From positions 352,001-416,000 of the forward strand of contig JBGAON010000003.1 in NCBI GenBank assembly GCA_044221725.1: a stretch of DNA of 64,000 nt, in the 5' to 3' direction. How positions within the stretch are numbered: the stretch's first letter is position 1; the number at the start of each line of letters is the position of its first letter. The notes under the pieces were generated by a model. That model had not been told where the DNA came from and did not search any database. It saw nothing but the letters and a program-made list of their open reading frames with translations. Shown here piece after piece: positions 22,050 to 34,659 of the stretch. The stretch comes from Elusimicrobiota bacterium. GTDB taxonomy: Bacteria > Elusimicrobiota > Elusimicrobia > F11. The translations under genes and the position numbers were made by a program.

Positions 22050-22093
22050 TGTCCAGGCAATTGTCTTGACAATTGTCTGGACATACTTATAAT
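22050..22093 (+). promoter_or_regulatory. TA promoter with a 34-bp palindromic operator
   Basis: TGTCCAGGCAATTGTCTTGACAATTGTCTGGACA (22050-22083) contains TTGACA 22066-22071; TATAAT at 22088-22093. Confidence 0.8.
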
Positions 22094-22099
22094 TATCCT

Positions 22100-22483
22100 A
22101 TGAAACAAGGAAATTTGGCCTTCACATTAAACGAACCTCTCTCGGAACAAAATGCCGCCCAACATATGGGGGCGATCATTCGTGATTCCCATATTCCCGC
22201 CTATATGATTGCTCAGGGGCTTGGAATACCCGAGAAAAATCTCAGCCGCATCACAGGCCAACATCATAAACCTCGACGCGATACGTTGAAACAATTGGAA
22301 CGTGTCGAGAAAGTATTTCAAGAGGCGCTTCGAGTTCTTACTCCAAAGGGAGCATTTGAGTGGTTGCGGAAAGCGAATCCTTATTTAAACGATGTCGCTC
22401 CGATTCAGTGTTTGCGCTCGGAGAAAGAACTGGAAAAAGTATTGGGGCTTCTCGGCTCAATTAAATTCGGTTTTCCAGCTTGA
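22100..22483 (+). CDS. Antitoxin, Xre/MbcA/ParS (DUF2384) type
   Basis: HTH IAQGLGIPEKNLSR; C-terminal AFEWLRKANPYLNDVAPI. Confidence 0.85.
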   Translation: MKQGNLAFTLNEPLSEQNAAQHMGAIIRDSHIPAYMIAQGLGIPEKNLSRITGQHHKPRRDTLKQLERVEKVFQEALRVLTPKGAFEWLRKANPYLNDVAPIQCLRSEKELEKVLGLLGSIKFGFPA

Positions 22484-22992
22484 ACTTAGCGGCACTCGCC
22501 GACTTATATCCCGGTATCAAAAAACAGGGAACCGCTTTCCGAATGGTGAATGCGGAATTCGAATCCTCGATCGATGAAATTAGCCACTCAATGGTTTTCG
22601 GAGCTCGGTTCAACCCAAAAGGGGAATTCGGAGTGCTCTACTTATCGTTAAGTGTGGACTGCTGCTTCAAAGAGAAGATTAAACAGGTCGGAACAAAAAA
22701 TTATTTGAAAGCGCAGACAGTTGGCACGTTTGAATTCCGTTTTGAACGTTGCCTTGACTTAACAGAGAAAGCCAACCTCGTGAAACTAGAAATTGAAACC
22801 TCGAAGCTAGTTGTTCCAGACGATTTCAATGAACCTCAGATTCTCGCTCGTGAAACTCGAAGAGTGGGATTTGAAGCCATTGTGGCTCCATCGGCGGTGG
22901 GAGAAGAGTGCCGAAATATTGTTGTTTTCAAAGATAAGCTGGGTCGCAAATCGTTTTGCGAATTGAAGAATACAAAGCCCTATAAGTTTTAG
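22480..22992 (+). CDS. RES-domain toxin (NAD+ phosphorylase family)
   Basis: GARFNPKGEFGVLYLS..E, AIVAPSA, NIVVF; TTGA overlap with the antitoxin stop. Confidence 0.88.
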   Translation: MNLAALADLYPGIKKQGTAFRMVNAEFESSIDEISHSMVFGARFNPKGEFGVLYLSLSVDCCFKEKIKQVGTKNYLKAQTVGTFEFRFERCLDLTEKANLVKLEIETSKLVVPDDFNEPQILARETRRVGFEAIVAPSAVGEECRNIVVFKDKLGRKSFCELKNTKPYKF

Positions 22993-26638: not shown

Positions 26639-27295
26639 ATGAGCACGCGTTCCGATCTCAAAGAAAATATTCTCGCCACAAAAGTGGAAGGTGTGCTCGC
26701 ATGGGTGCTCACGAACCGCGTTCCTGTTATTGCAACGGCGGCCGTCGCAGCGCTTGTTCTTCTTTTTGGAAGCGTGGTCGTTTTGCGGAACCGAGAAAGG
26801 CGCGAAATCAACATTACGCGCATGGCGCTCGCACAATCTTTTCTTATGCAGCATCAATACGACCGCGCCTATCAGGCTTTCGAAGAATTAAAACCAACCG
26901 TTAGCGATAACAACTTGTTGGCGCAGGCGTTGTACTACCAGGGCGCGTCGGCGCTCGGTCTTAAGAAATTCGACGACGCCGAAAAACTTTTTTCCGAAGC
27001 GGTTGATCGCAGCGCTAAGTCGCCGCTGAAGCCGTTGGCGTTATCCAATATGGGATTTGCCCAAGAATCAAAAAAGAATTATGAGGCCGCCGCCCAAACA
27101 TACGAACGTTTCATGTCGGAGTTTGGCGAGCATTTTCTTGCGGCGCGCGTGCAGCTGAATCTCGGTCGCGCGTTGGCCGCCGCCAACAAAATTGACGACG
27201 CCAAAAAAGCGCTCGGCCACCTTATCGATCTCTATCCAACCTCGCACTGGGCTGAAAACGCGCGGTCAATTATGGACAAATTAAAAACTCGGTGA
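26639..27295 (+). CDS. Membrane-anchored TPR protein (YfgM-like)
   Basis: Single N-terminal TM followed by TPR repeats. Confidence 0.8.
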   Translation: MSTRSDLKENILATKVEGVLAWVLTNRVPVIATAAVAALVLLFGSVVVLRNRERREINITRMALAQSFLMQHQYDRAYQAFEELKPTVSDNNLLAQALYYQGASALGLKKFDDAEKLFSEAVDRSAKSPLKPLALSNMGFAQESKKNYEAAAQTYERFMSEFGEHFLAARVQLNLGRALAAANKIDDAKKALGHLIDLYPTSHWAENARSIMDKLKTR

Positions 27296-27388
27296 TACAA
27301 TCCGCGCACTTTGCCTTTCACATTTTTTCTGATTCACGGTATTTTGAATAGCAGCACAAATCAAAACTCCTAAGGGGGAATCACAAAG

Positions 27389-28849
27389 ATGAGAAAACAA
27401 TTGGCCATGTTTGCCATTGTTTCAGTAGTAGCGACCACTTCGACGTGGCCGCTCTTCGCGGTGGGGAACCTGCAGTTCGACGGGTCCCTGGAAGTAAGCG
27501 GTAACTCAGCAAATAACGAAAAAGATCTCGGTGGTGTGAAAACATCGAACACCGGATCGAACGATCACCGTGGCGTCACCACGACGCGGGTGCGGGTCGG
27601 AATGAATGCCGAGGTAACCGAAGGTGTGACGGGTCGCCTCGAACTCGTTCGCAACAACGGTTCGGCTGGTTCGCAGTCTCTCTATGGTGGCGCAGGAAAG
27701 CCATCGTCGGTGAGCAATGAAGAAAGCAACTTCCTATTCCATAATGCCTACGTGACTCTGCAAGATTTGTGGGGCATGGAAGCGCGCCTCGGTCGTCAAT
27801 ACACCGGTGAAGTTGGAGATGCCATCTGGCACATCGGTCCGAAAAGCGATGATGCGCTCGCCGTCAATTCCATCGATGGTCTTCAACTCCAATGCGCGAA
27901 GAAAGAACCTCGCGGTAATTTCTGGGACAAACTTCATGTCGTTTTGTTCACGGGTAAAGCAGCGGAAACCGCCACGTCCGTAGCACAGACCGATGCAACT
28001 TCCTCCGGTGATGTGAACCTCACCAACGTCGAAGCTATCTTGAGCGTGATCCCCGGTGGTCGCGTTCGGACAGCTGTGTTGATGGGTGATAAGTCCAACA
28101 CGAGTGGGGCGGGCGATAACGATCACCTGAAAATCTTCCGTTTGGGCGCCAATGGTGGTATTCATGAAAACATGTTCACCTACCGTGCGGAATACTTGAA
28201 AAACTTCGGTCAGCGCAACAACGGTGGCGCGACAAGCGACCTCAAATATAAAGGTAGCGCCATTGACTTGGGCGCCGGCTTCAACAGCGGTGACCTCAGC
28301 ATCGGTTCGATCGGCGTTGCTCTTAACTTCTTCCAGGCGTCGGGCGATGACAAAACAGCGAACGACAACGACGACAAATCCTTCCATGACTTCTCGCTTC
28401 TCGGCGTGAATACATCGGATCGTTACTTCGGCGAAATCTTCGGAAAAAGCAATGCGTTGGGTGGTGGTACACCTCTCGGACAGGGCGTGGACGGCGTGAA
28501 CAGCACGGCGCAATCGCAAGGTCTCCAGGTGTTCAACGTTGGTCTCGTCTACAAGCCGCATTTCTCGACGAAATCGCGTTTCGACCTTCAGTTCTACACG
28601 TTTTCCAGAGCGAAAGGCTCGGTTGATGGAACGGACCATGGCAAGAAATTCGGAAACGAATTTGACTTGACCTACGGTTACGACCACACGGAAAACGTTG
28701 GGCTCGAGCTCGGTTGGGCGATGTTGAATCCGGACGAAGCGCTGGATTACAACGTTGCACCGACGACAGGTTTGAATGCAACGCAGCAAGATGCCATCAA
28801 CAAAATTTTCGCCCGCGCGAAAATCAAGTTCGGTGGAGAGAAGAGCTAA
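27389..28849 (+). CDS. Outer-membrane beta-barrel protein (alginate-export-like porin)
   Basis: Signal peptide; NAYVTL, RLGRQ, ASGDD, GNEFDLTY. Confidence 0.7.
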   Translation: MRKQLAMFAIVSVVATTSTWPLFAVGNLQFDGSLEVSGNSANNEKDLGGVKTSNTGSNDHRGVTTTRVRVGMNAEVTEGVTGRLELVRNNGSAGSQSLYGGAGKPSSVSNEESNFLFHNAYVTLQDLWGMEARLGRQYTGEVGDAIWHIGPKSDDALAVNSIDGLQLQCAKKEPRGNFWDKLHVVLFTGKAAETATSVAQTDATSSGDVNLTNVEAILSVIPGGRVRTAVLMGDKSNTSGAGDNDHLKIFRLGANGGIHENMFTYRAEYLKNFGQRNNGGATSDLKYKGSAIDLGAGFNSGDLSIGSIGVALNFFQASGDDKTANDNDDKSFHDFSLLGVNTSDRYFGEIFGKSNALGGGTPLGQGVDGVNSTAQSQGLQVFNVGLVYKPHFSTKSRFDLQFYTFSRAKGSVDGTDHGKKFGNEFDLTYGYDHTENVGLELGWAMLNPDEALDYNVAPTTGLNATQQDAINKIFARAKIKFGGEKS

Positions 28850-28869
28850 TCGAAAAAAAGTTTAAAACG

Positions 28870-28909
28870 GAAACCCCTCTCGCCTTCGGGTGAGAGGGGT
28901 TTCTTTTTT
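28870..28909 (+). terminator. Rho-independent terminator
   Basis: GAAACCCCTCTCGCC-TTCG-GGTGAGAGGGGTTTC followed by T6. Confidence 0.9.
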
Positions 28910-28958
28910 CTTGCTGGACCACTGAGTCTCTGTTACAATCGATTTCTCGAAAAACGAC

Positions 28959-30311
28959 ATGAAAATAAAAAAAATCATTTTCCTTCTCGGTTTTTCCTGT
29001 TCAATTCCTTATCTTCACGCCACCAATCTTTCCATCGGCGCCGATTATCTGTTGCGCGGTGTTTCAACCCACGAGCGCGATAAAAATTTTAAGAACAGTG
29101 CCTACTACGATCAACGCCTGCAAGGTTATCTCACGACCGATTTAAGCCGCGACGTCGAAGCATCGATTCGGATTCAATCGATCACGCCATGGGGCCTCGA
29201 AGGCTCGTCCACGCCGCTCGTGACGCGTTATCCGAGCGCGAACGGAAATTTGTTTGTGCAAAACGCGTTTGCCCGCTTGCCACATCTATGGAAAGACAGA
29301 ATCATTCTCACGATCGGGCGCCAACCCATCCAGTGGGGCGACGGAAAAATTCTCTCGGATGATGAATTGGGATTCAATGCGATCCGGGCCCAATTAAAAT
29401 CGCCGTTTCGGCGTCTGCCGTTCGATTTGGAGGGCTTTACAGCGAAAATCAGTGAAAGCCTTAACCAACCCGGTGGCGATAAAGATTTGTACGGTTCGAT
29501 GCTGTCGTTTGACAGCAAAGCCTTTCGCTGGGATTTCATGGGGTTGTGGGAAAAATCGGATGGTTCGCAATCGTATCAAGTGGGCAGCTCCAGCACTCCA
29601 TTCGCCGCAACAAAAGTGGACCGAACCATTTATGGTGTGCGCGCGATCACGCGCCTCAAGGACGCCTATTTAAAAGGTGAATATTACATGCAGAGCGGTG
29701 AAGTGAAGCAGGGGGCAAATTCCCCGACCGTGAAACTGGGTGGCTCCGGATATGTGGTGGGGTTGGGGGGGAAACAAAACACCGAAAAATTTGGGCGTTT
29801 CGGAGCCGTTGCAGAAATCTGTTCCGGTTCCGGAGACAATGCGAACACGTCCGACAAGGACGAAGCATTCCGGCCAACGTTTGCGAGCCGTTGGTCCGGT
29901 TTGGAACGAAGCGGCTATGGCAATTATTTCGCGGCGACGTTTTCCGATGCTTATTCACCGACACAGCCCTTTGCGAATCCAGGAACCAACAACACGGGCC
30001 TTCCCGACGGAGCTTCCGGTATTCAAACCATTCATTTCGGAATTGATGCGACGCCGTGGTCGCAGTGGACATTTCTTTTTGATTACTACCAATACAAAGC
30101 CGACAAGAGCACAGCCGGGGACAAAGAGCTCGGTGTGGAGTTTGACTACGGATTCCTCTATCGATTCTCTGGTCTCGTCAGCGTGAAAGGAATGATGGCG
30201 TCATTTAAACCGGGCAAAGCTTTTGATGTAATCGATCCCACCACCAACAGCACCATCAGCACCAGTCAGAACGCAAGTCGCTCCAGTATCGAACTTCAGC
30301 TAAAGTTCTAG
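28959..30311 (+). CDS. Outer-membrane beta-barrel protein (alginate-export-like), paralog of 27389
   Basis: Signal peptide; NAFARL, IGRQPIQWGDG, SGSGD, LGVEFDY; terminal Phe. Confidence 0.72.
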   Translation: MKIKKIIFLLGFSCSIPYLHATNLSIGADYLLRGVSTHERDKNFKNSAYYDQRLQGYLTTDLSRDVEASIRIQSITPWGLEGSSTPLVTRYPSANGNLFVQNAFARLPHLWKDRIILTIGRQPIQWGDGKILSDDELGFNAIRAQLKSPFRRLPFDLEGFTAKISESLNQPGGDKDLYGSMLSFDSKAFRWDFMGLWEKSDGSQSYQVGSSSTPFAATKVDRTIYGVRAITRLKDAYLKGEYYMQSGEVKQGANSPTVKLGGSGYVVGLGGKQNTEKFGRFGAVAEICSGSGDNANTSDKDEAFRPTFASRWSGLERSGYGNYFAATFSDAYSPTQPFANPGTNNTGLPDGASGIQTIHFGIDATPWSQWTFLFDYYQYKADKSTAGDKELGVEFDYGFLYRFSGLVSVKGMMASFKPGKAFDVIDPTTNSTISTSQNASRSSIELQLKF

Positions 30312-30313
30312 TC

Positions 30314-31225
30314 TCAGGCCCGCGGATGGGCCTTCTCGTAGGTCTTCTTCATTCTCTCGGTCGTCACATGCGTATAGATCTGTGTTGTTGAGAGATTTTT
30401 ATGGCCCAGCATCTCCTGCACGGTGCGCAAATCGCAGCCAGCGTCCACCATGTGCGTCGCGAACGTGTGTCGGACAACGTGCGGGCTAATCTTTCGACGA
30501 ATACCAGCCTTTAAGGCGGCCTGCTCAATTATTGTGTGCATCGCGCGCGTGCTGAGGCGTGATTTCGAGCGCAAGCTCGTGAAAACGGGGTTTTTCTGAG
30601 AAGTGGGGGATAAAACATCTTGTCCGCGCAGTTTTAGATAGTCGCGAAGAGCCTTCATTCCGATTGAACCAAGCGGCACGATACGTTGTTTGTTGCCTTT
30701 GCCAATAACAGAAACCGTTTTATTCCAAAAATCGATGTCTCCTATGCTTAATCCCGACGCTTCCGAAACCCGGATTCCACAGGAATAGACCAATTCAATC
30801 CAGGCTCGGTTCCGCAGCGCTGCTTCCTGATTCTTTACTTGGCAAATCGCGACAATCAGATGGGTCAGCTCATCTGTTGTCAGAAAATTGGGGATTTTCT
30901 GCTCTCTTCGTGGTGTGTGGAGGGTAGCAGCGGGGTTTTTAGCGATTTTCTCGGTCCTCATCAGGTATTTGAAGAACGACCGAATTGTTGCCAACTTTCG
31001 GATGAAGGAATTGGTCTTTAGGTTCTGTTCCTTGATCCTACCGAAATAAGCGCGAATGTCGGATTTGTCCAGTTCGATAACGCTCTTCATGGTCTTTCGG
31101 TCCAGGTATTTCGCGAAATCGGACAAGTCGGCTCGATACGCGCGAACGGTGGCCGGCGACATTCGCCTTTCTTGCAAGCTTTTCAAGAATTCTTCGATAA
31201 GTGCCACGTTTTGTTTCATTTTCAT
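30314..31225 (-). CDS. xerC: Tyrosine recombinase XerC/XerD
   Basis: Catalytic R-K-HxxR-H-Y (CGIRVSE, GKGNK, HVVRH, LGH, TQIY); terminal HPRA; XerC versus XerD not resolved. Confidence 0.88.
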   Translation of the reverse strand: MKMKQNVALIEEFLKSLQERRMSPATVRAYRADLSDFAKYLDRKTMKSVIELDKSDIRAYFGRIKEQNLKTNSFIRKLATIRSFFKYLMRTEKIAKNPAATLHTPRREQKIPNFLTTDELTHLIVAICQVKNQEAALRNRAWIELVYSCGIRVSEASGLSIGDIDFWNKTVSVIGKGNKQRIVPLGSIGMKALRDYLKLRGQDVLSPTSQKNPVFTSLRSKSRLSTRAMHTIIEQAALKAGIRRKISPHVVRHTFATHMVDAGCDLRTVQEMLGHKNLSTTQIYTHVTTERMKKTYEKAHPRA

Positions 31226-31282
31226 TTTTTGGGATTCGACGTTAACATTTGCACCAATTTCTACCAAATTTGGCCGAAGACA

Positions 31283-31310
31283 ACTTCTGATAATATATAT
31301 TATGTTCTAT
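31283..31310 (+). other. dif-like chromosome dimer-resolution site
   Basis: ACTTCTGATAA-TATATA-TTATGTTCTAT (11-6-11), resembling B. subtilis ACTTCCTAGAA-TATATA-TTATGTAAACT and the E. coli right arm TTATGTTAAAT; lies at the gene-strand switch. Confidence 0.8.
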
Positions 31311-31463
31311 ATATTGTGTGCGCGGCAAGGTTAAAATTCTGCATATAGATTGGTAGATTTTCTTTGAAAATAATTGCTGATCAGTATTAATTTGTTGTGC
31401 GCGAGGACTTGTATTGATTTTTTAATCTTGCGAATCGCGGCCAAAAAAATCCGTTGGCGCGAT

Positions 31464-31724
31464 TTAAGAACGATCTTTAACGAGAAGAGCTACACCGATT
31501 GTGGTGTAGCCGCCCAAGATTAGAAACGGGCTTAGATGGCTGGCCCAGTTGCTGCCCATCGGGTCTGCCAACGACAGAACAACGTACCCAATAATAAGGA
31601 TGCCGATCCCAAGTCCCACCAGTTTCCATCCCTTTTTGGATACCAAGAGAGGCGTTTTTACGATTTGATTTGGCGTGTTTTGGGGTATCCCGGGTACCCG
31701 GTTTTGCTTATTTTTCTTTGGCAT
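31464..31724 (-). CDS. Small two-TM membrane protein (DUF3098-like)
   Basis: GIGILIIGYVVLS...LSPFLILGGY. Confidence 0.6.
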   Translation of the reverse strand: MPKKNKQNRVPGIPQNTPNQIVKTPLLVSKKGWKLVGLGIGILIIGYVVLSLADPMGSNWASHLSPFLILGGYTTIGVALLVKDRS

Positions 31725-32223
31725 TTTGCGGTTTCTGGCAGTTGCGACATCGACCGAAGATTTCGTGTCGGTGAAAAATTGGAGTAAAGCCGAGTTCGCG
31801 ACAAGTCTTTTCCTGGATCCGTTCCACTTGTGGCCATTGAATTTCTTGGATTGCGCCACATTCCACGCAGATCAAATGATCGTGATGCGGCCGTTCGTAG
31901 TTAACCTCGTAGCGCGGTTTGCCGTTCGGTGCGTGCACGCGGTCGATAATTTTGCATTCCTCAAGCATTTTCAACGCTCGGAACACGGTTACCTTGCCGA
32001 TCCCATAACTCTTAAGCGCTTGATAAATTTCGTCTTCACCCACATGATGATGCGCTGATAGCAGATAATCGAGAATGCGGCTGCGCTGCTGTGTCATGCG
32101 CATTCCTCTTTCATGGTGGTATTTCTCAAAGAGCTCGCGAATGCGGTCGGCGTAGCCGTTCCGGCCGGCAACCCAGGACGGGAAATAAACCAGTTCTTCT
32201 TTGTTCGTAATCGGGGCTGACAT
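31708..32223 (-). CDS. fur: Fur-family metal-responsive regulator
   Basis: MTQQRSRIL, TVFRAL, HHDHLICVECG, CRNC. Confidence 0.92.
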   Translation of the reverse strand: MSAPITNKEELVYFPSWVAGRNGYADRIRELFEKYHHERGMRMTQQRSRILDYLLSAHHHVGEDEIYQALKSYGIGKVTVFRALKMLEECKIIDRVHAPNGKPRYEVNYERPHHDHLICVECGAIQEIQWPQVERIQEKTCRELGFTPIFHRHEIFGRCRNCQKPQNAKEK

Positions 32224-32254
32224 GGATCTTATTATACGCTAATGATGCAATTGC

Positions 32255-33349
32255 TTAATGAGACAGATTGTAAATTGATCGGCAAAGGTACCCCCCCGCA
32301 ACTCCTAGATAGGTGCCCAAAACGGCTCCAAAAACGGCCATGAGCACGCCGATATGCGCGGTGCGTAGTCGGTAGGTCTCAGAAACAATTGGCGCAGAAA
32401 CCGCTCCGCCAATGTTCGCTTGGCTGGCCGTGGCGAGCAGAAAAAAGGGTGTTTGAAAATATTTCCCCAACAGGACCGATAAGACGCCATGTATTCCGAG
32501 CGTCAGAACGCCGTACAAAAGATAAATGGGGGCGCCCAGCGTCGCCGTCAGCGTTGTCTTTGCGCCGATGGTGATGAGAACCAAATAAAGCAGAAGCGTT
32601 CCAATGTTTTGTGTTCCCCACCTTTTTATTTTTTTTAGCGGAGTGAGAGCCAAGAGAAGGGCCAACGTCGATGCGCAAAGCAATGTCCAACCGTTCGTCG
32701 GAAAGAATTTTGCGAGGCTGCCGATCTGTTTGCCGAGCATCACGCACAATTCTCCAATCGCAAAACCGATAGCAATCACAAGAATTGTTGGCGCGGAAAA
32801 CCAACGGAATTTATTCTCTTCGCGTGTTTGATGAAATTGGGACTCATTTTCTGTGGACGTCCACGACGGCTCGTCAAAGTTCTTTTGAAACTTGGCTCCC
32901 GATAATAAAAACGCCATCCACGCGTACGAAAGCAGTGTGTCCACGATAACCAGAATACTGAGCCCACCGTCGGAAAGTCCGAGGATTTCTTTTACGGCCA
33001 CCATGTTCGCGCTGCCACCGATCCACGTACCCATCAGCGCGCCCACCGCTTTCCACGCTTCGCCTGGAAGGAAATTCATGAAGAGCACGTAGACAAATAT
33101 TTGCGCGAAGAAAATTGTTCCGGTGCCGATCGCCATCGCAACCATGGCCTTGGGGCCAATTTTCACCAGATCGGAAAGTGGCGCCCCCACGAGCATGAGA
33201 ACAATTGCGACGGGCAAAACGTGGCGCGTGGTCCAATCGTACGCAAAGGATTCGTGCGGCAAAATGCCAACGGTTCCGGCGACAATGGAAAGAAAATAAA
33301 CCCAAAACGGAATCGGCAGAATGTCGAGAATTTTCTCGACAACTTTCAA
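32255..33349 (-). CDS. DUF819-family membrane protein
   Basis: GTWIGGSANMVAV and ASQANIGGAVSAP; TTG 33349 overlaps the upstream TGA. Confidence 0.85.
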   Translation of the reverse strand: MKVVEKILDILPIPFWVYFLSIVAGTVGILPHESFAYDWTTRHVLPVAIVLMLVGAPLSDLVKIGPKAMVAMAIGTGTIFFAQIFVYVLFMNFLPGEAWKAVGALMGTWIGGSANMVAVKEILGLSDGGLSILVIVDTLLSYAWMAFLLSGAKFQKNFDEPSWTSTENESQFHQTREENKFRWFSAPTILVIAIGFAIGELCVMLGKQIGSLAKFFPTNGWTLLCASTLALLLALTPLKKIKRWGTQNIGTLLLYLVLITIGAKTTLTATLGAPIYLLYGVLTLGIHGVLSVLLGKYFQTPFFLLATASQANIGGAVSAPIVSETYRLRTAHIGVLMAVFGAVLGTYLGVAGGYLCRSIYNLSH

Positions 33350-34659
33350 ACGGCGTGTTTCCTTTTCCACGCGTAATACGCGGGAATGCCCAAGACAAAT
33401 ACAAGAATTCCGATGGGACCGTAAATGCCACGTTCGAGGATTTTTGCGTACAACATCAGGCACGAGATAACAACGAACACGGCCGGTGTTAGCGGATAAC
33501 CCCAGCATTTGTAGGGCCGCGGCAAATTCGGTTGCTTCTTTCGGAAAACAAAAATCGAAAGCACCGTCATCAAAGAGATTATGACGAGCGGCACCGACAA
33601 AACTTTCAAAATAATTTCGAAATTGCCGATGAGAATTAGTCCGCAGGCCCATACACCTTCAAACCAAATGGCGCCGTTTGGTGTGTTGTATGTCGGATGA
33701 ACAAACGATCCGAAATCAAAAAAGTAACCATCGCGACTCAGCGCAAACAACGTGCGTGGGTTTGATAACAATGTCGCCGACAGGCAACCGAGCACCGATG
33801 TTGCGACGAGAATTGTAATGAGATTGGAAGCAAACGGACCGAAGAGATTTGTGGCCGCCGTGTGCGCAACTTTTACTTCTCCGACGAGTGTCGGCAGTGG
33901 AATCGCGTACAAGTAAACGGCGTTCATTGCGAGATAAATGATTGTCGTGGCGAGCGTGCCAATCACGAGCGACATCGGAATAAGCCGTCCCGGATTTTTT
34001 ACTTCTTCGGCGACAAAGACGGCGGAATTCCAACCGGAATACGTGAATGCCATTGGTACAAGCGCCGCAGCGATCGCCATCGCAGCGTGGGATGTCGATC
34101 CAGAGAAAAGCGGTTGGAAATGGGCGATGTTTCCATGTCCGATGAACCATCCCAGCACGGCCAGCGCAAACATCGCCACAACTTTTAATGATGTGATGCC
34201 ATCCATCACCGAAGCGCCAAGTTTAAGACCGCGCGTGTTTAAAAATGTGAACAACAAGACAATTGCCACGCAGAAAATTTTCGTCGAGAAAAGCGCCGTG
34301 TTCATGCCGGCGTATTCCGCGAATCCAATCGCCAGCAAAGCGATGGTTCCCGGCGTGGTCACAAGCGAATAAGCCCAGCCGTACAAAAATCCCCAAAGCG
34401 GTCCGTACGCTTCGCGCAAAAAAACGTAGTTCCCCCCCGCTTTCGGCATCATTGCGCCGAGTTCCCCATACGTCAGGGCTCCAACAAGCGCCATGAGTCC
34501 GCCGATCGTCCACGCGAGCAACACCCAACCCGCGGACGGTAGGTCGCGCGCGATTTCTCCGGGCGTTGTAAAAATGCCGACGCCGATGATGTTACCGATC
34601 ACCAGCAACACGCACGTAAAAAGCCCGAGCTCTCTTTTTAATTCGGGTGGATTGTTCAT
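33346..34659 (-). CDS. APC-family amino acid permease
   Basis: IIGVGIF, ELGAMMPKAGG, YSGW, EEVKNP, RPYKCWGYP. Confidence 0.93.
   Translation of the reverse strand: MNNPPELKRELGLFTCVLLVIGNIIGVGIFTTPGEIARDLPSAGWVLLAWTIGGLMALVGALTYGELGAMMPKAGGNYVFLREAYGPLWGFLYGWAYSLVTTPGTIALLAIGFAEYAGMNTALFSTKIFCVAIVLLFTFLNTRGLKLGASVMDGITSLKVVAMFALAVLGWFIGHGNIAHFQPLFSGSTSHAAMAIAAALVPMAFTYSGWNSAVFVAEEVKNPGRLIPMSLVIGTLATTIIYLAMNAVYLYAIPLPTLVGEVKVAHTAATNLFGPFASNLITILVATSVLGCLSATLLSNPRTLFALSRDGYFFDFGSFVHPTYNTPNGAIWFEGVWACGLILIGNFEIILKVLSVPLVIISLMTVLSIFVFRKKQPNLPRPYKCWGYPLTPAVFVVISCLMLYAKILERGIYGPIGILVFVLGIPAYYAWKRKHAV

Follow-up and report, generated by a model that had tools for sequence, protein, structure and literature searches.

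A predicted chromosomal dif site beside an apparently relocated xerC gene in Elusimicrobia

The window considered here, i.e., the whole stretch of DNA analyzed, comprises 64,000 nucleotides (C5:352001-416000) of an Elusimicrobiota genome (G000; 2.82 Mb, five contigs, 94% complete). Within this window, xerC, encoding a tyrosine recombinase of 303 amino acids, occupies positions 30314..31225 on the minus strand, and a second in-frame ATG at 31219 (301 aa) aligns with the starts of orthologs from the same genus. Upstream of this gene, the 28-mer ACTTCTGATAA-TATATA-TTATGTTCTAT was located at 31283-31310 (plus strand), in agreement with the first-pass annotation, and the spacing between the first ATG and the 28-mer amounts to 57 nt, close to the 58 bp given before. 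The left flank of the site (26639..30311, plus strand) encodes a TPR protein (26639-27295) followed by two proteins that are probably exported and lack a family match (27389-28849 and 28959-30311), the last of these genes having its stop codon 2 nt from that of xerC. The two adjacent exported-type proteins (486 and 450 aa; 27389-30311) resemble each other, have no Pfam or NCBIfam match and are kept beside the site across the family. In the right flank (31464..34659, minus strand), genes for a small membrane protein (about 31464-31724), a Fur-family regulator (31708-32223), a DUF819 protein and an amino-acid-permease-like protein were observed; the labels of the membrane and the permease-like protein were read from the sequence and have no family-search match. 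Furthermore, the window harbors a gene pair at 22073-22992 encoding an Xre/MbcA/ParS-like antitoxin (just under the Pfam cut-off) and a RES-domain toxin.

The 28-mer shares its features with chromosomal dif sites, namely a length of 28 bp, an 11-6-11 layout, palindromic inner arms, low GC content and a non-coding position. It is composed of a predicted XerC arm (31283-31293) facing the xerC start codon, a center of 6 bp (31294-31299) and a predicted XerD arm (31300-31310), with arm names assigned by resemblance to the canonical order given in PMC2731167. No second copy within 8 mismatches occurs elsewhere in the 2.82-Mb genome. When scored with a matrix built from 22 candidate sites of the class, the 28-mer itself among them, it reached 44.6 bits, and the runner-up place in the genome reached 12.4 bits. 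The bare core ATAA-N6-TTATG was found in 9 genome copies versus about 16 expected; since the core is not enriched, the signal is carried by the full arms and their conservation. Regarding the latter, information content in the 22 class sites ranges from 0.8 to 1.4 bits per position in the outer left arm and from 0.2 to 0.9 in the outer right arm.

Loss of the site in relatives had been named by the first-pass annotation as an argument against it. The motif ACTTCYKATAA-N6-TTATG, corresponding to the dif type predicted for Elusimicrobium minutum, is present at a syntenic locus in 12/12 family genomes. Exceptions concern the copy number, with a duplicated stretch in G006 and one extra 1-mismatch match in G007. 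In G006, the entire dif locus occurs twice on one contig, inverted and with identical flanks (G006:C49:36577 and 148201; L085, L086), which is probably an assembly artefact in a genome with 14% contamination. The genes of the right flank are located right of dif in 10/12 family genomes, these being the ones whose contig extends that far, and the left-flank block lies at least partly left of dif in 9/12, three of which carry no xerC there. G005, G006 and G008 possess the same dif locus without xerC. On the XerC-arm side, different genes were found among unlinked family members (G004, G007, G008, G010). For G008 (L087), an ORF of 141 aa was noticed 204-630 nt left of dif, in the place and orientation that xerC has in the linked clade; its product contains an RxxxR motif and looks PilZ-like by eye.

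Linkage between dif and xerC was evaluated for 73 xerC loci of Elusimicrobiota (that of G000, 32 from 40 relatives, and 40 chosen from 126 phylum matches). A degenerate pattern applied phylum-wide had produced many chance matches in AT-rich genomes and was replaced by a direct scan upstream of xerC. A dif site upstream of xerC was detected in 6/73 loci, originating from G000-G003 (genus g1) and from G009 and G011 (genus g7), referred to as linked genomes in the following. All six loci show uniform orientation, with the xerC start 50-137 nt from the XerC arm of dif, so that the dif-xer unit is conserved upstream of orthologs in 6/6 genomes of one clade. The remaining 67 Elusimicrobiota loci contain no dif upstream of xerC; in 64 of them, xerC follows topA, and one locus among the three exceptions is cut short by its contig end at 59 nt. 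In a scan of named genome contigs, a single locus turned up; a close ortholog of the gene is present in uncultured Elusimicrobia. In G007, neither xerC nor topA was found with the queries used.

The recombinase encoded in the window matches the XerC profile TIGR02224 best (317 bits, below the cut-off of 335), followed by PRK00283 (294 bits, cut-off 279), and reaches 131 bits with the XerS profile (cut-off 267). Despite the sub-cut-off score, its identity as XerC is supported by the tree, in which it is nested in the clade of topA-linked XerC proteins, and by the topA synteny of its orthologs. The catalytic residues R152, K176, H249, R252, H275 and Y284 are present in XerC and fall into invariant columns. 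Counting of xer paralogs yielded nine tyrosine recombinases in the genome. XerD is encoded after recA on another contig (TIGR02225, 336 bits, cut-off 329.6), and xerD was found in 6/6 linked genomes. Moreover, an FtsK domain (PF01580, 200 bits) was identified on C4, its gene being located 4 kb upstream of xerD. From the divergent right arm of the site, the first-pass annotation had derived the possibility of a single-Xer system; this proposal is contradicted by the intact XerD and FtsK and by the class-wide variability of the right arm, whose divergence is common to relatives with xerC far from dif. XerD reads RSTFW at a motif that is RQTFW in E. coli, and Q at this position occurs in 0/18 aligned XerD proteins. 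As XerD Q221 has been predicted to contact dif position 24 (PMC2731167), the absence of this residue probably explains why the outer XerD arm is relaxed in the class.

Some further observations concern the recombinase genes of these genomes. Two extra XerD-like recombinases (C3:99554-100444 and C2:312029-313024), which share 41% identity and fall short of the XerD cut-off, cluster apart in the tree, and G002 has several similar genes. An integron integrase is encoded at C3:2150-3151 (L005; TIGR02249, 449 bits, cut-off 265). In 4/4 genomes of genus g1, xerD (C4:129916-130854, L001; L109, L110, L200) has no ATG, GTG or TTG at the orthologous start; instead, an ATA following a run of A overlaps the TAG that ends the recA frame. 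The codon in place of this ATA is ATG in G009 and G005 and TTG in G011 and G004. The arrangement suggests either that xerD is translated from an AUA start in coupling with recA or that a -1 frameshift yields a RecA-XerD fusion. G003 speaks against the fusion, as an in-frame TAA already interrupts its recA further upstream.

Strand polarity of short motifs was analyzed on contig C5, and the KOPS-like signal that the first-pass annotation had proposed to look for was found in the form of G-run motifs ([GT]GGGG[AG]) converging on the 28-mer. The maximum-likelihood change point of their strand preference (LRT 183) lies within positions 30889..32291 of the window, corresponding to an interval of 1.4 kb on C5 (382,888 to 384,290) that contains the site at 383,283. 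Across the site, G-run counts change from 179:32 to 14:45 in plus-strand genes, from 52:21 to 18:87 in minus-strand genes and from 29:7 to 11:20 in intergenic DNA. Gene orientation likewise turns, plus-strand genes accounting for 204/283 genes left of the site versus 53/163 right of it, as called with the authors' own ORF scorer. Furthermore, polarized 7- and 8-mers trained on the other contigs reach their maxima on C5 at 382,739 and 381,766. In 4/4 other genomes, each sampled by ten 20-kb stretches, G-run polarity and gene orientation both turn at the homologous site, and xerC is 173-483 kb away from that site in three of the four. The gene-strand control is weaker in these four genomes, e.g., with counts of 47:42 for minus-strand genes on the left side in G002 and of 38:39 for plus-strand genes on the right side in G032. 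KOPS motifs of the E. coli type (GGGNAGGG) and of the Bacillus type were too few and showed no clear flip at the site. In the whole genome, runs of 5-7 G (e.g., GGGGGA; L246-L285) are the most strand-polarized short motifs and converge on dif. They are considered a candidate for the FtsK-orienting sequence of Elusimicrobia. Since the 28-mer is unique, occupies one conserved family locus and coincides with the convergence of G runs and gene orientation, it very likely represents the chromosomal dif. Based on genome interpretation, it is highly probable that the site is a real and functional dif belonging to a conventional XerC/XerD-FtsK system of dimer resolution.

Proximity of dif to the GC-skew switch is typical, not required. 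A skew switch near the site, as expected by the first-pass annotation, was not observed: raw GC skew does not reverse at the 28-mer, and replication-associated skew flips at least 223 kb and probably about 400 kb away. Raw skew was replaced by gene-strand-corrected skew, gene orientation and motif polarity. Coding-strand-corrected skew amounts to +0.053 left of the site and to +0.057 (95% CI 0.042-0.073) over the 223 kb right of it. The skew minimum is located on C1 at 75 kb, beside dnaA-dnaN-recF-gyrB; besides this dnaA (C1:67652-69049), a second protein with a DnaA-type ATPase domain (552 aa) is encoded at G000:C1:301315-302973. On contig C4, skew reverses near 496 kb. If the right ends of C5 and C4 join, as deduced from matching motif and skew polarity, the skew arms measure 1.38 and 1.44 Mb; the link between C3 and C4 rests on a shared repeat, and the presumed contig order is C1-C2-C5-reverse C4-reverse C3. 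Given this join, dif would probably lie about 400 kb short of the point at which the forks meet, the minimum offset being 223 kb. The earlier annotation had regarded a distant skew switch together with a better dif elsewhere as decisive against the site; the first part was found, the second was not. Skew sign is also unchanged across the site in 3/4 other genomes, and dif and skew switch are apart in 4/5 genomes examined. For E. minutum, the predicted dif is 18.9 degrees off the skew switch (PMC3025954 supplement), and Kono et al. 2012 (PMC3317982) argued that dif is not the termination site.

The discordance between skew and motifs is probably genuine, because a misassembly would flip both together. 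It suggests that selection may hold the G runs against the mutational skew. In the region C5:383310-606516 plus C4:496000-673615 (about 400 kb if joined), G runs and most genes point towards dif and skew is opposite; forks would encounter most of these genes head-on. Skew and motifs were likewise seen to be uncoupled in G002, G015 and G032. The separation of dif and skew provides a test bed for models in which forks meet freely versus those in which they stop at dif, and it offers a candidate FtsK-orienting motif.

The linked XerC proteins, which are 56-65% identical to that of G000, form one clade (support 100/99) inside the family clade (99/96). The linked group is also monophyletic in the XerD tree (100/98; 4 rows), built before the true XerD proteins of G002 and G009 were found, and in the TopA tree (98; 5 rows). 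Behind topA, xerC is missing in 4/4 linked genomes with sequence there. The dif locus without xerC in relatives, the vacated place behind topA and the single clade together point to one move of a native gene. With high confidence, native xerC is therefore proposed to have moved once from topA to the existing dif locus, in a common ancestor of the sister genera g1 and g7, so that the six linked genomes represent one evolutionary event. No cargo genes were found at the linked loci (0/6), nor does any of the six have a conserved second att-like half-site at the xerC end distal to dif. A half-site match with 2 mismatches in G000 was rejected, as it lies within the coding end of the neighboring gene and is not conserved. 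Xer genes from metagenomes were all distant among the matches listed, mostly 32-44% identical, and 0/80 of these loci had a site scoring above 18 bits within 500 nt upstream (at least 200 nt of upstream sequence being available for 77), which represents a weak control given the lineage-trained matrix.

At the place where xerC stood behind topA, a non-coding element was noticed (C2:76480-76640, L092; L093, L095) that is about 150 nt long and conserved in 3/3 genomes of genus g1 with sequence there. It is located on the opposite strand and ends in a hairpin with a U run. The element was not seen in G009, has a weak partial copy at C5:595351 and is a candidate small RNA; an Rfam search on 10 loci, including this one, gave no match.

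According to the first-pass annotation, the site is embedded in the promoter of the xer gene. The hexamers described for this promoter candidate, TTGCCG (31328-31323) and CATAAT (31304-31299) with a spacing of 18 nt, do exist on the minus strand (TTGCCG-18-CATAAT, 31299..31328). Their interpretation as a conserved promoter was not supported, as CATAAT consists of dif letters, TTGCCG has no counterpart in the other genomes and the opposite strand scores equally. CATAAT, the reverse complement of dif letters, is present in 11/12 family genomes, including 5/6 of those that lack xerC at the locus. TTGCCG is found 18 nt upstream in G000 only; at this spacing, the other linked genomes have TGGCAA, TTACCT, CGTCAT, GGGTTC and TGGCGG. 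Promoter-like sites within 30200-31800 are not above chance (3 versus 1.9 +/- 1.2 in shuffles). Scored with E. coli sigma-70 base frequencies, which give rough values, the best promoters overlapping dif reached 5.3-11.5 bits in linked and 5.1-7.6 bits in unlinked genomes (p = 0.086, the genomes being related), and those on the opposite strand over dif reached 6.5-10.9 bits. No -35/-10 pair overlapping dif is conserved.

A second candidate, TTGGTA-17-(TG-T)TAACGT (31239..31267, minus strand), is proximal to the start, its -35 beginning 15 nt downstream of dif. A TAnnnT hexamer is located 6-9 nt before the xerC ATG in 5/6 linked genomes (TAGNTT in all five) and in 3/5 unlinked, topA-linked xerC genes of the family, compared with a background of about 13% of first-in-operon genes in G000 and with 15/73 xerC loci overall. 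G000 represents the exception, having TG-T-TAACGT 13 nt before the first ATG. The predicted start-proximal -10 is better conserved than CATAAT, and the simplest reading is that the promoter travelled together with xerC. A second promoter overlapping dif is possible in G000 and G002, where candidates score well (9.0 and 11.5 bits). The search for terminators ahead of dif gave weak matches in 3/12 genomes and no strong one between dif and the preceding gene, and a consensus terminator scan yielded one candidate inside the 3' end of that gene. In 4/4 RNA runs of one study, xerC pieces with at least 99% identity were detected, possibly including carry-over of DNA. Among eight public runs, available as assembled contigs, no contig covers 31284-31457 and no joints were found.

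Taken together, an ordinary dif of the XerCD-FtsK type, beside which xerC came to lie by one move from topA and is transcribed from a start-proximal promoter, is the probable explanation for this locus. FtsK would follow the G-run polarity motifs to dif and activate XerD, and XerC would complete strand exchange thereafter. Recombination between sister copies at dif would rebuild an identical junction, so that the adjoining xerC would remain unharmed. Transcription of xerC would proceed from the start-proximal, often leaderless promoter carried along in the move, with dif located upstream of the -35 at about -51 to -130 in the six linked genomes. Repression by bound Xer would then be incidental or strain-specific and not part of a conserved circuit. 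Against this explanation stand the skew that keeps its sign across the site, the XerC score below the family cut-off and the start-proximal -10 that is not at 6-9 nt in G000, as well as the background frequency of such hexamers, the well-scoring candidates over dif in G000 and G002 and the origin of the six linked genomes in one event.

Other explanations accept the same dif and XerCD system and attribute the linkage to selection. In a feedback arrangement, the promoter would overlap dif, or transcription would cross it, so that bound XerC/XerD represses xerC. Orientation and short distance (50-137 nt) were indeed kept in 6/6 genomes despite the XerC divergence given above, 4/6 have promoter candidates over dif, with scores of 9.0, 11.5, 8.9 and 8.2 bits, dif starts near -51 in 2/6 even if the proximal promoter is assumed, and read-through across dif appears possible given the lack of a strong upstream terminator. 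However, the overlapping candidates shift their position between genomes, the scores mentioned before do not clearly separate linked from unlinked genomes, the opposite strand scores equally high, and the distance between dif and xerC varies nearly threefold. Moreover, the neighboring genes are equally syntenic, so that retention needs no selection. Selected feedback is unlikely, although it deserves consideration before the remaining alternatives, and conserved autorepression of xerC is judged similarly doubtful. As a safeguard against mobile elements, which was proposed for difSL-xerS (PMC1914069), the arrangement would be maintained because integration at dif would part xerC from its upstream promoter. 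This is consistent with the variable XerC-arm side in unlinked members and with the lack of an insert between dif and xerC in 6/6 linked genomes. Such a safeguard presupposes a promoter located within dif or upstream of it, an absence of insertions cannot be demonstrated with six related genomes, and no integrating element was identified at the loci compared; it is considered quite improbable.

Two further readings would change the nature of the system. The gene adjoining its site, the non-canonical outer right arm and the missing ATG, GTG or TTG in xerD of genus g1 might point to an XerS/XerH-like module with one recombinase binding both arms. Since XerD is intact and above its cut-off, xerD occurs in 6/6 linked genomes, the protein in the window has 303 aa and a low XerS score, the center measures 6 bp and not 11 (PMC5357621), and the arms are equally variable where xerC is unlinked, this is very improbable. 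It is even harder to regard the gene as the integrase of a mobile element and the site as its attachment site, for which the insertion of xerC on the XerC-arm side, as targeted by the IS1202 family (bioRxiv 2022.12.17.520857), could be cited. The protein is the only XerC found and was inherited vertically, neither cargo nor a conserved second half-site occurs in 6/6 linked genomes, the site is older than the arrival of the gene, and tree and synteny contradict this reading. More speculatively, a XerCD system may have evolved a counterpart of the XerS/XerH modules independently, with xerC under the control of the dif-bound complex, xerD of genus g1 depending on an AUA start or frameshift, and an offset dif. 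This possibility is rated as rather unlikely; if true, both recombinases would be dosed through their gene positions, and a dif with G runs about 400 kb from the fork meeting point, against the skew, would mark the G runs as the FtsK-orienting signal.

A recombinase gene beside its site is often read as a mark of single-recombinase systems. The preferred explanation, namely the move of native xerC to an ordinary dif, implies that such a layout can also be created in a XerC/XerD system. As the layout arises in a standard XerCD system, a single-Xer system should not be called on the grounds of adjacency. Furthermore, the dif locus with and without xerC represents a natural before/after pair for the question, posed in 2007, of why xer genes adjoin dif. 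These considerations refer to one relocation event in six genome assemblies. No report of xerC adjoining dif in a XerCD system was found in the literature searched, which takes in few subscription journals; the layout was found reported for one-enzyme systems only, and its occurrence in a XerCD system appears to be new.

Compared with the E. coli-type dif/XerCD-FtsK system, the locus shares the site of 28 bp with its 11-6-11 layout and inner palindrome, the single non-coding locus, the two recombinases together with FtsK and the position at the convergence of polarity motifs. It differs in the distance of xerC to dif, which is 50-137 nt here and large there, in the polarity motifs, which are G runs and not GGGNAGGG, and in a skew switch that lies far from dif. 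Moreover, the outer XerC arm is the more conserved one here, whereas in proteobacterial dif it is the outer XerD arm (PMC2731167). A dif of the type described here was predicted for E. minutum by Kono et al. 2011, who also reported that xerC genes are mostly near dif on the genome scale (PMC3025954). Elements targeting dif, such as IMEX and the ISAba32 group of IS1202, resemble the present case in that DNA arrives on the XerC-arm side of dif, as shown for the ISAba32 group (bioRxiv 2022.12.17.520857), but here the arriving DNA is the host xerC, with neither cargo, inverted repeats nor a second att site. In the XerS/difSL system of Streptococcus and Lactococcus, the site is likewise located directly upstream of the recombinase gene, and Le Bourgeois et al. 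2007 contrasted this arrangement with classical systems, in which the genes are distant from dif, and already proposed autoregulation and an insertion guard (PMC1914069). In contrast to that system, with one recombinase of 356 aa and a 31-bp site with an 11-bp center (PMC5357621), two recombinases and a canonical site are present here, and the native gene was apparently relocated and not replaced. For XerH/difH of Campylobacter, Helicobacter and Wolinella, the gene is 16-215 nt from the site in several species, but a single recombinase of 354-363 aa acts on a difSL-like site (PMC2731167). Carnoy and Roten tabulated 234 chromosomes (Table S1; PMC2731167); among the 16 data rows listed there for recombinases and integrases, a Xer gene flanks the site in XerH rows only, and in XerCD rows the flanking genes are phage integrases.
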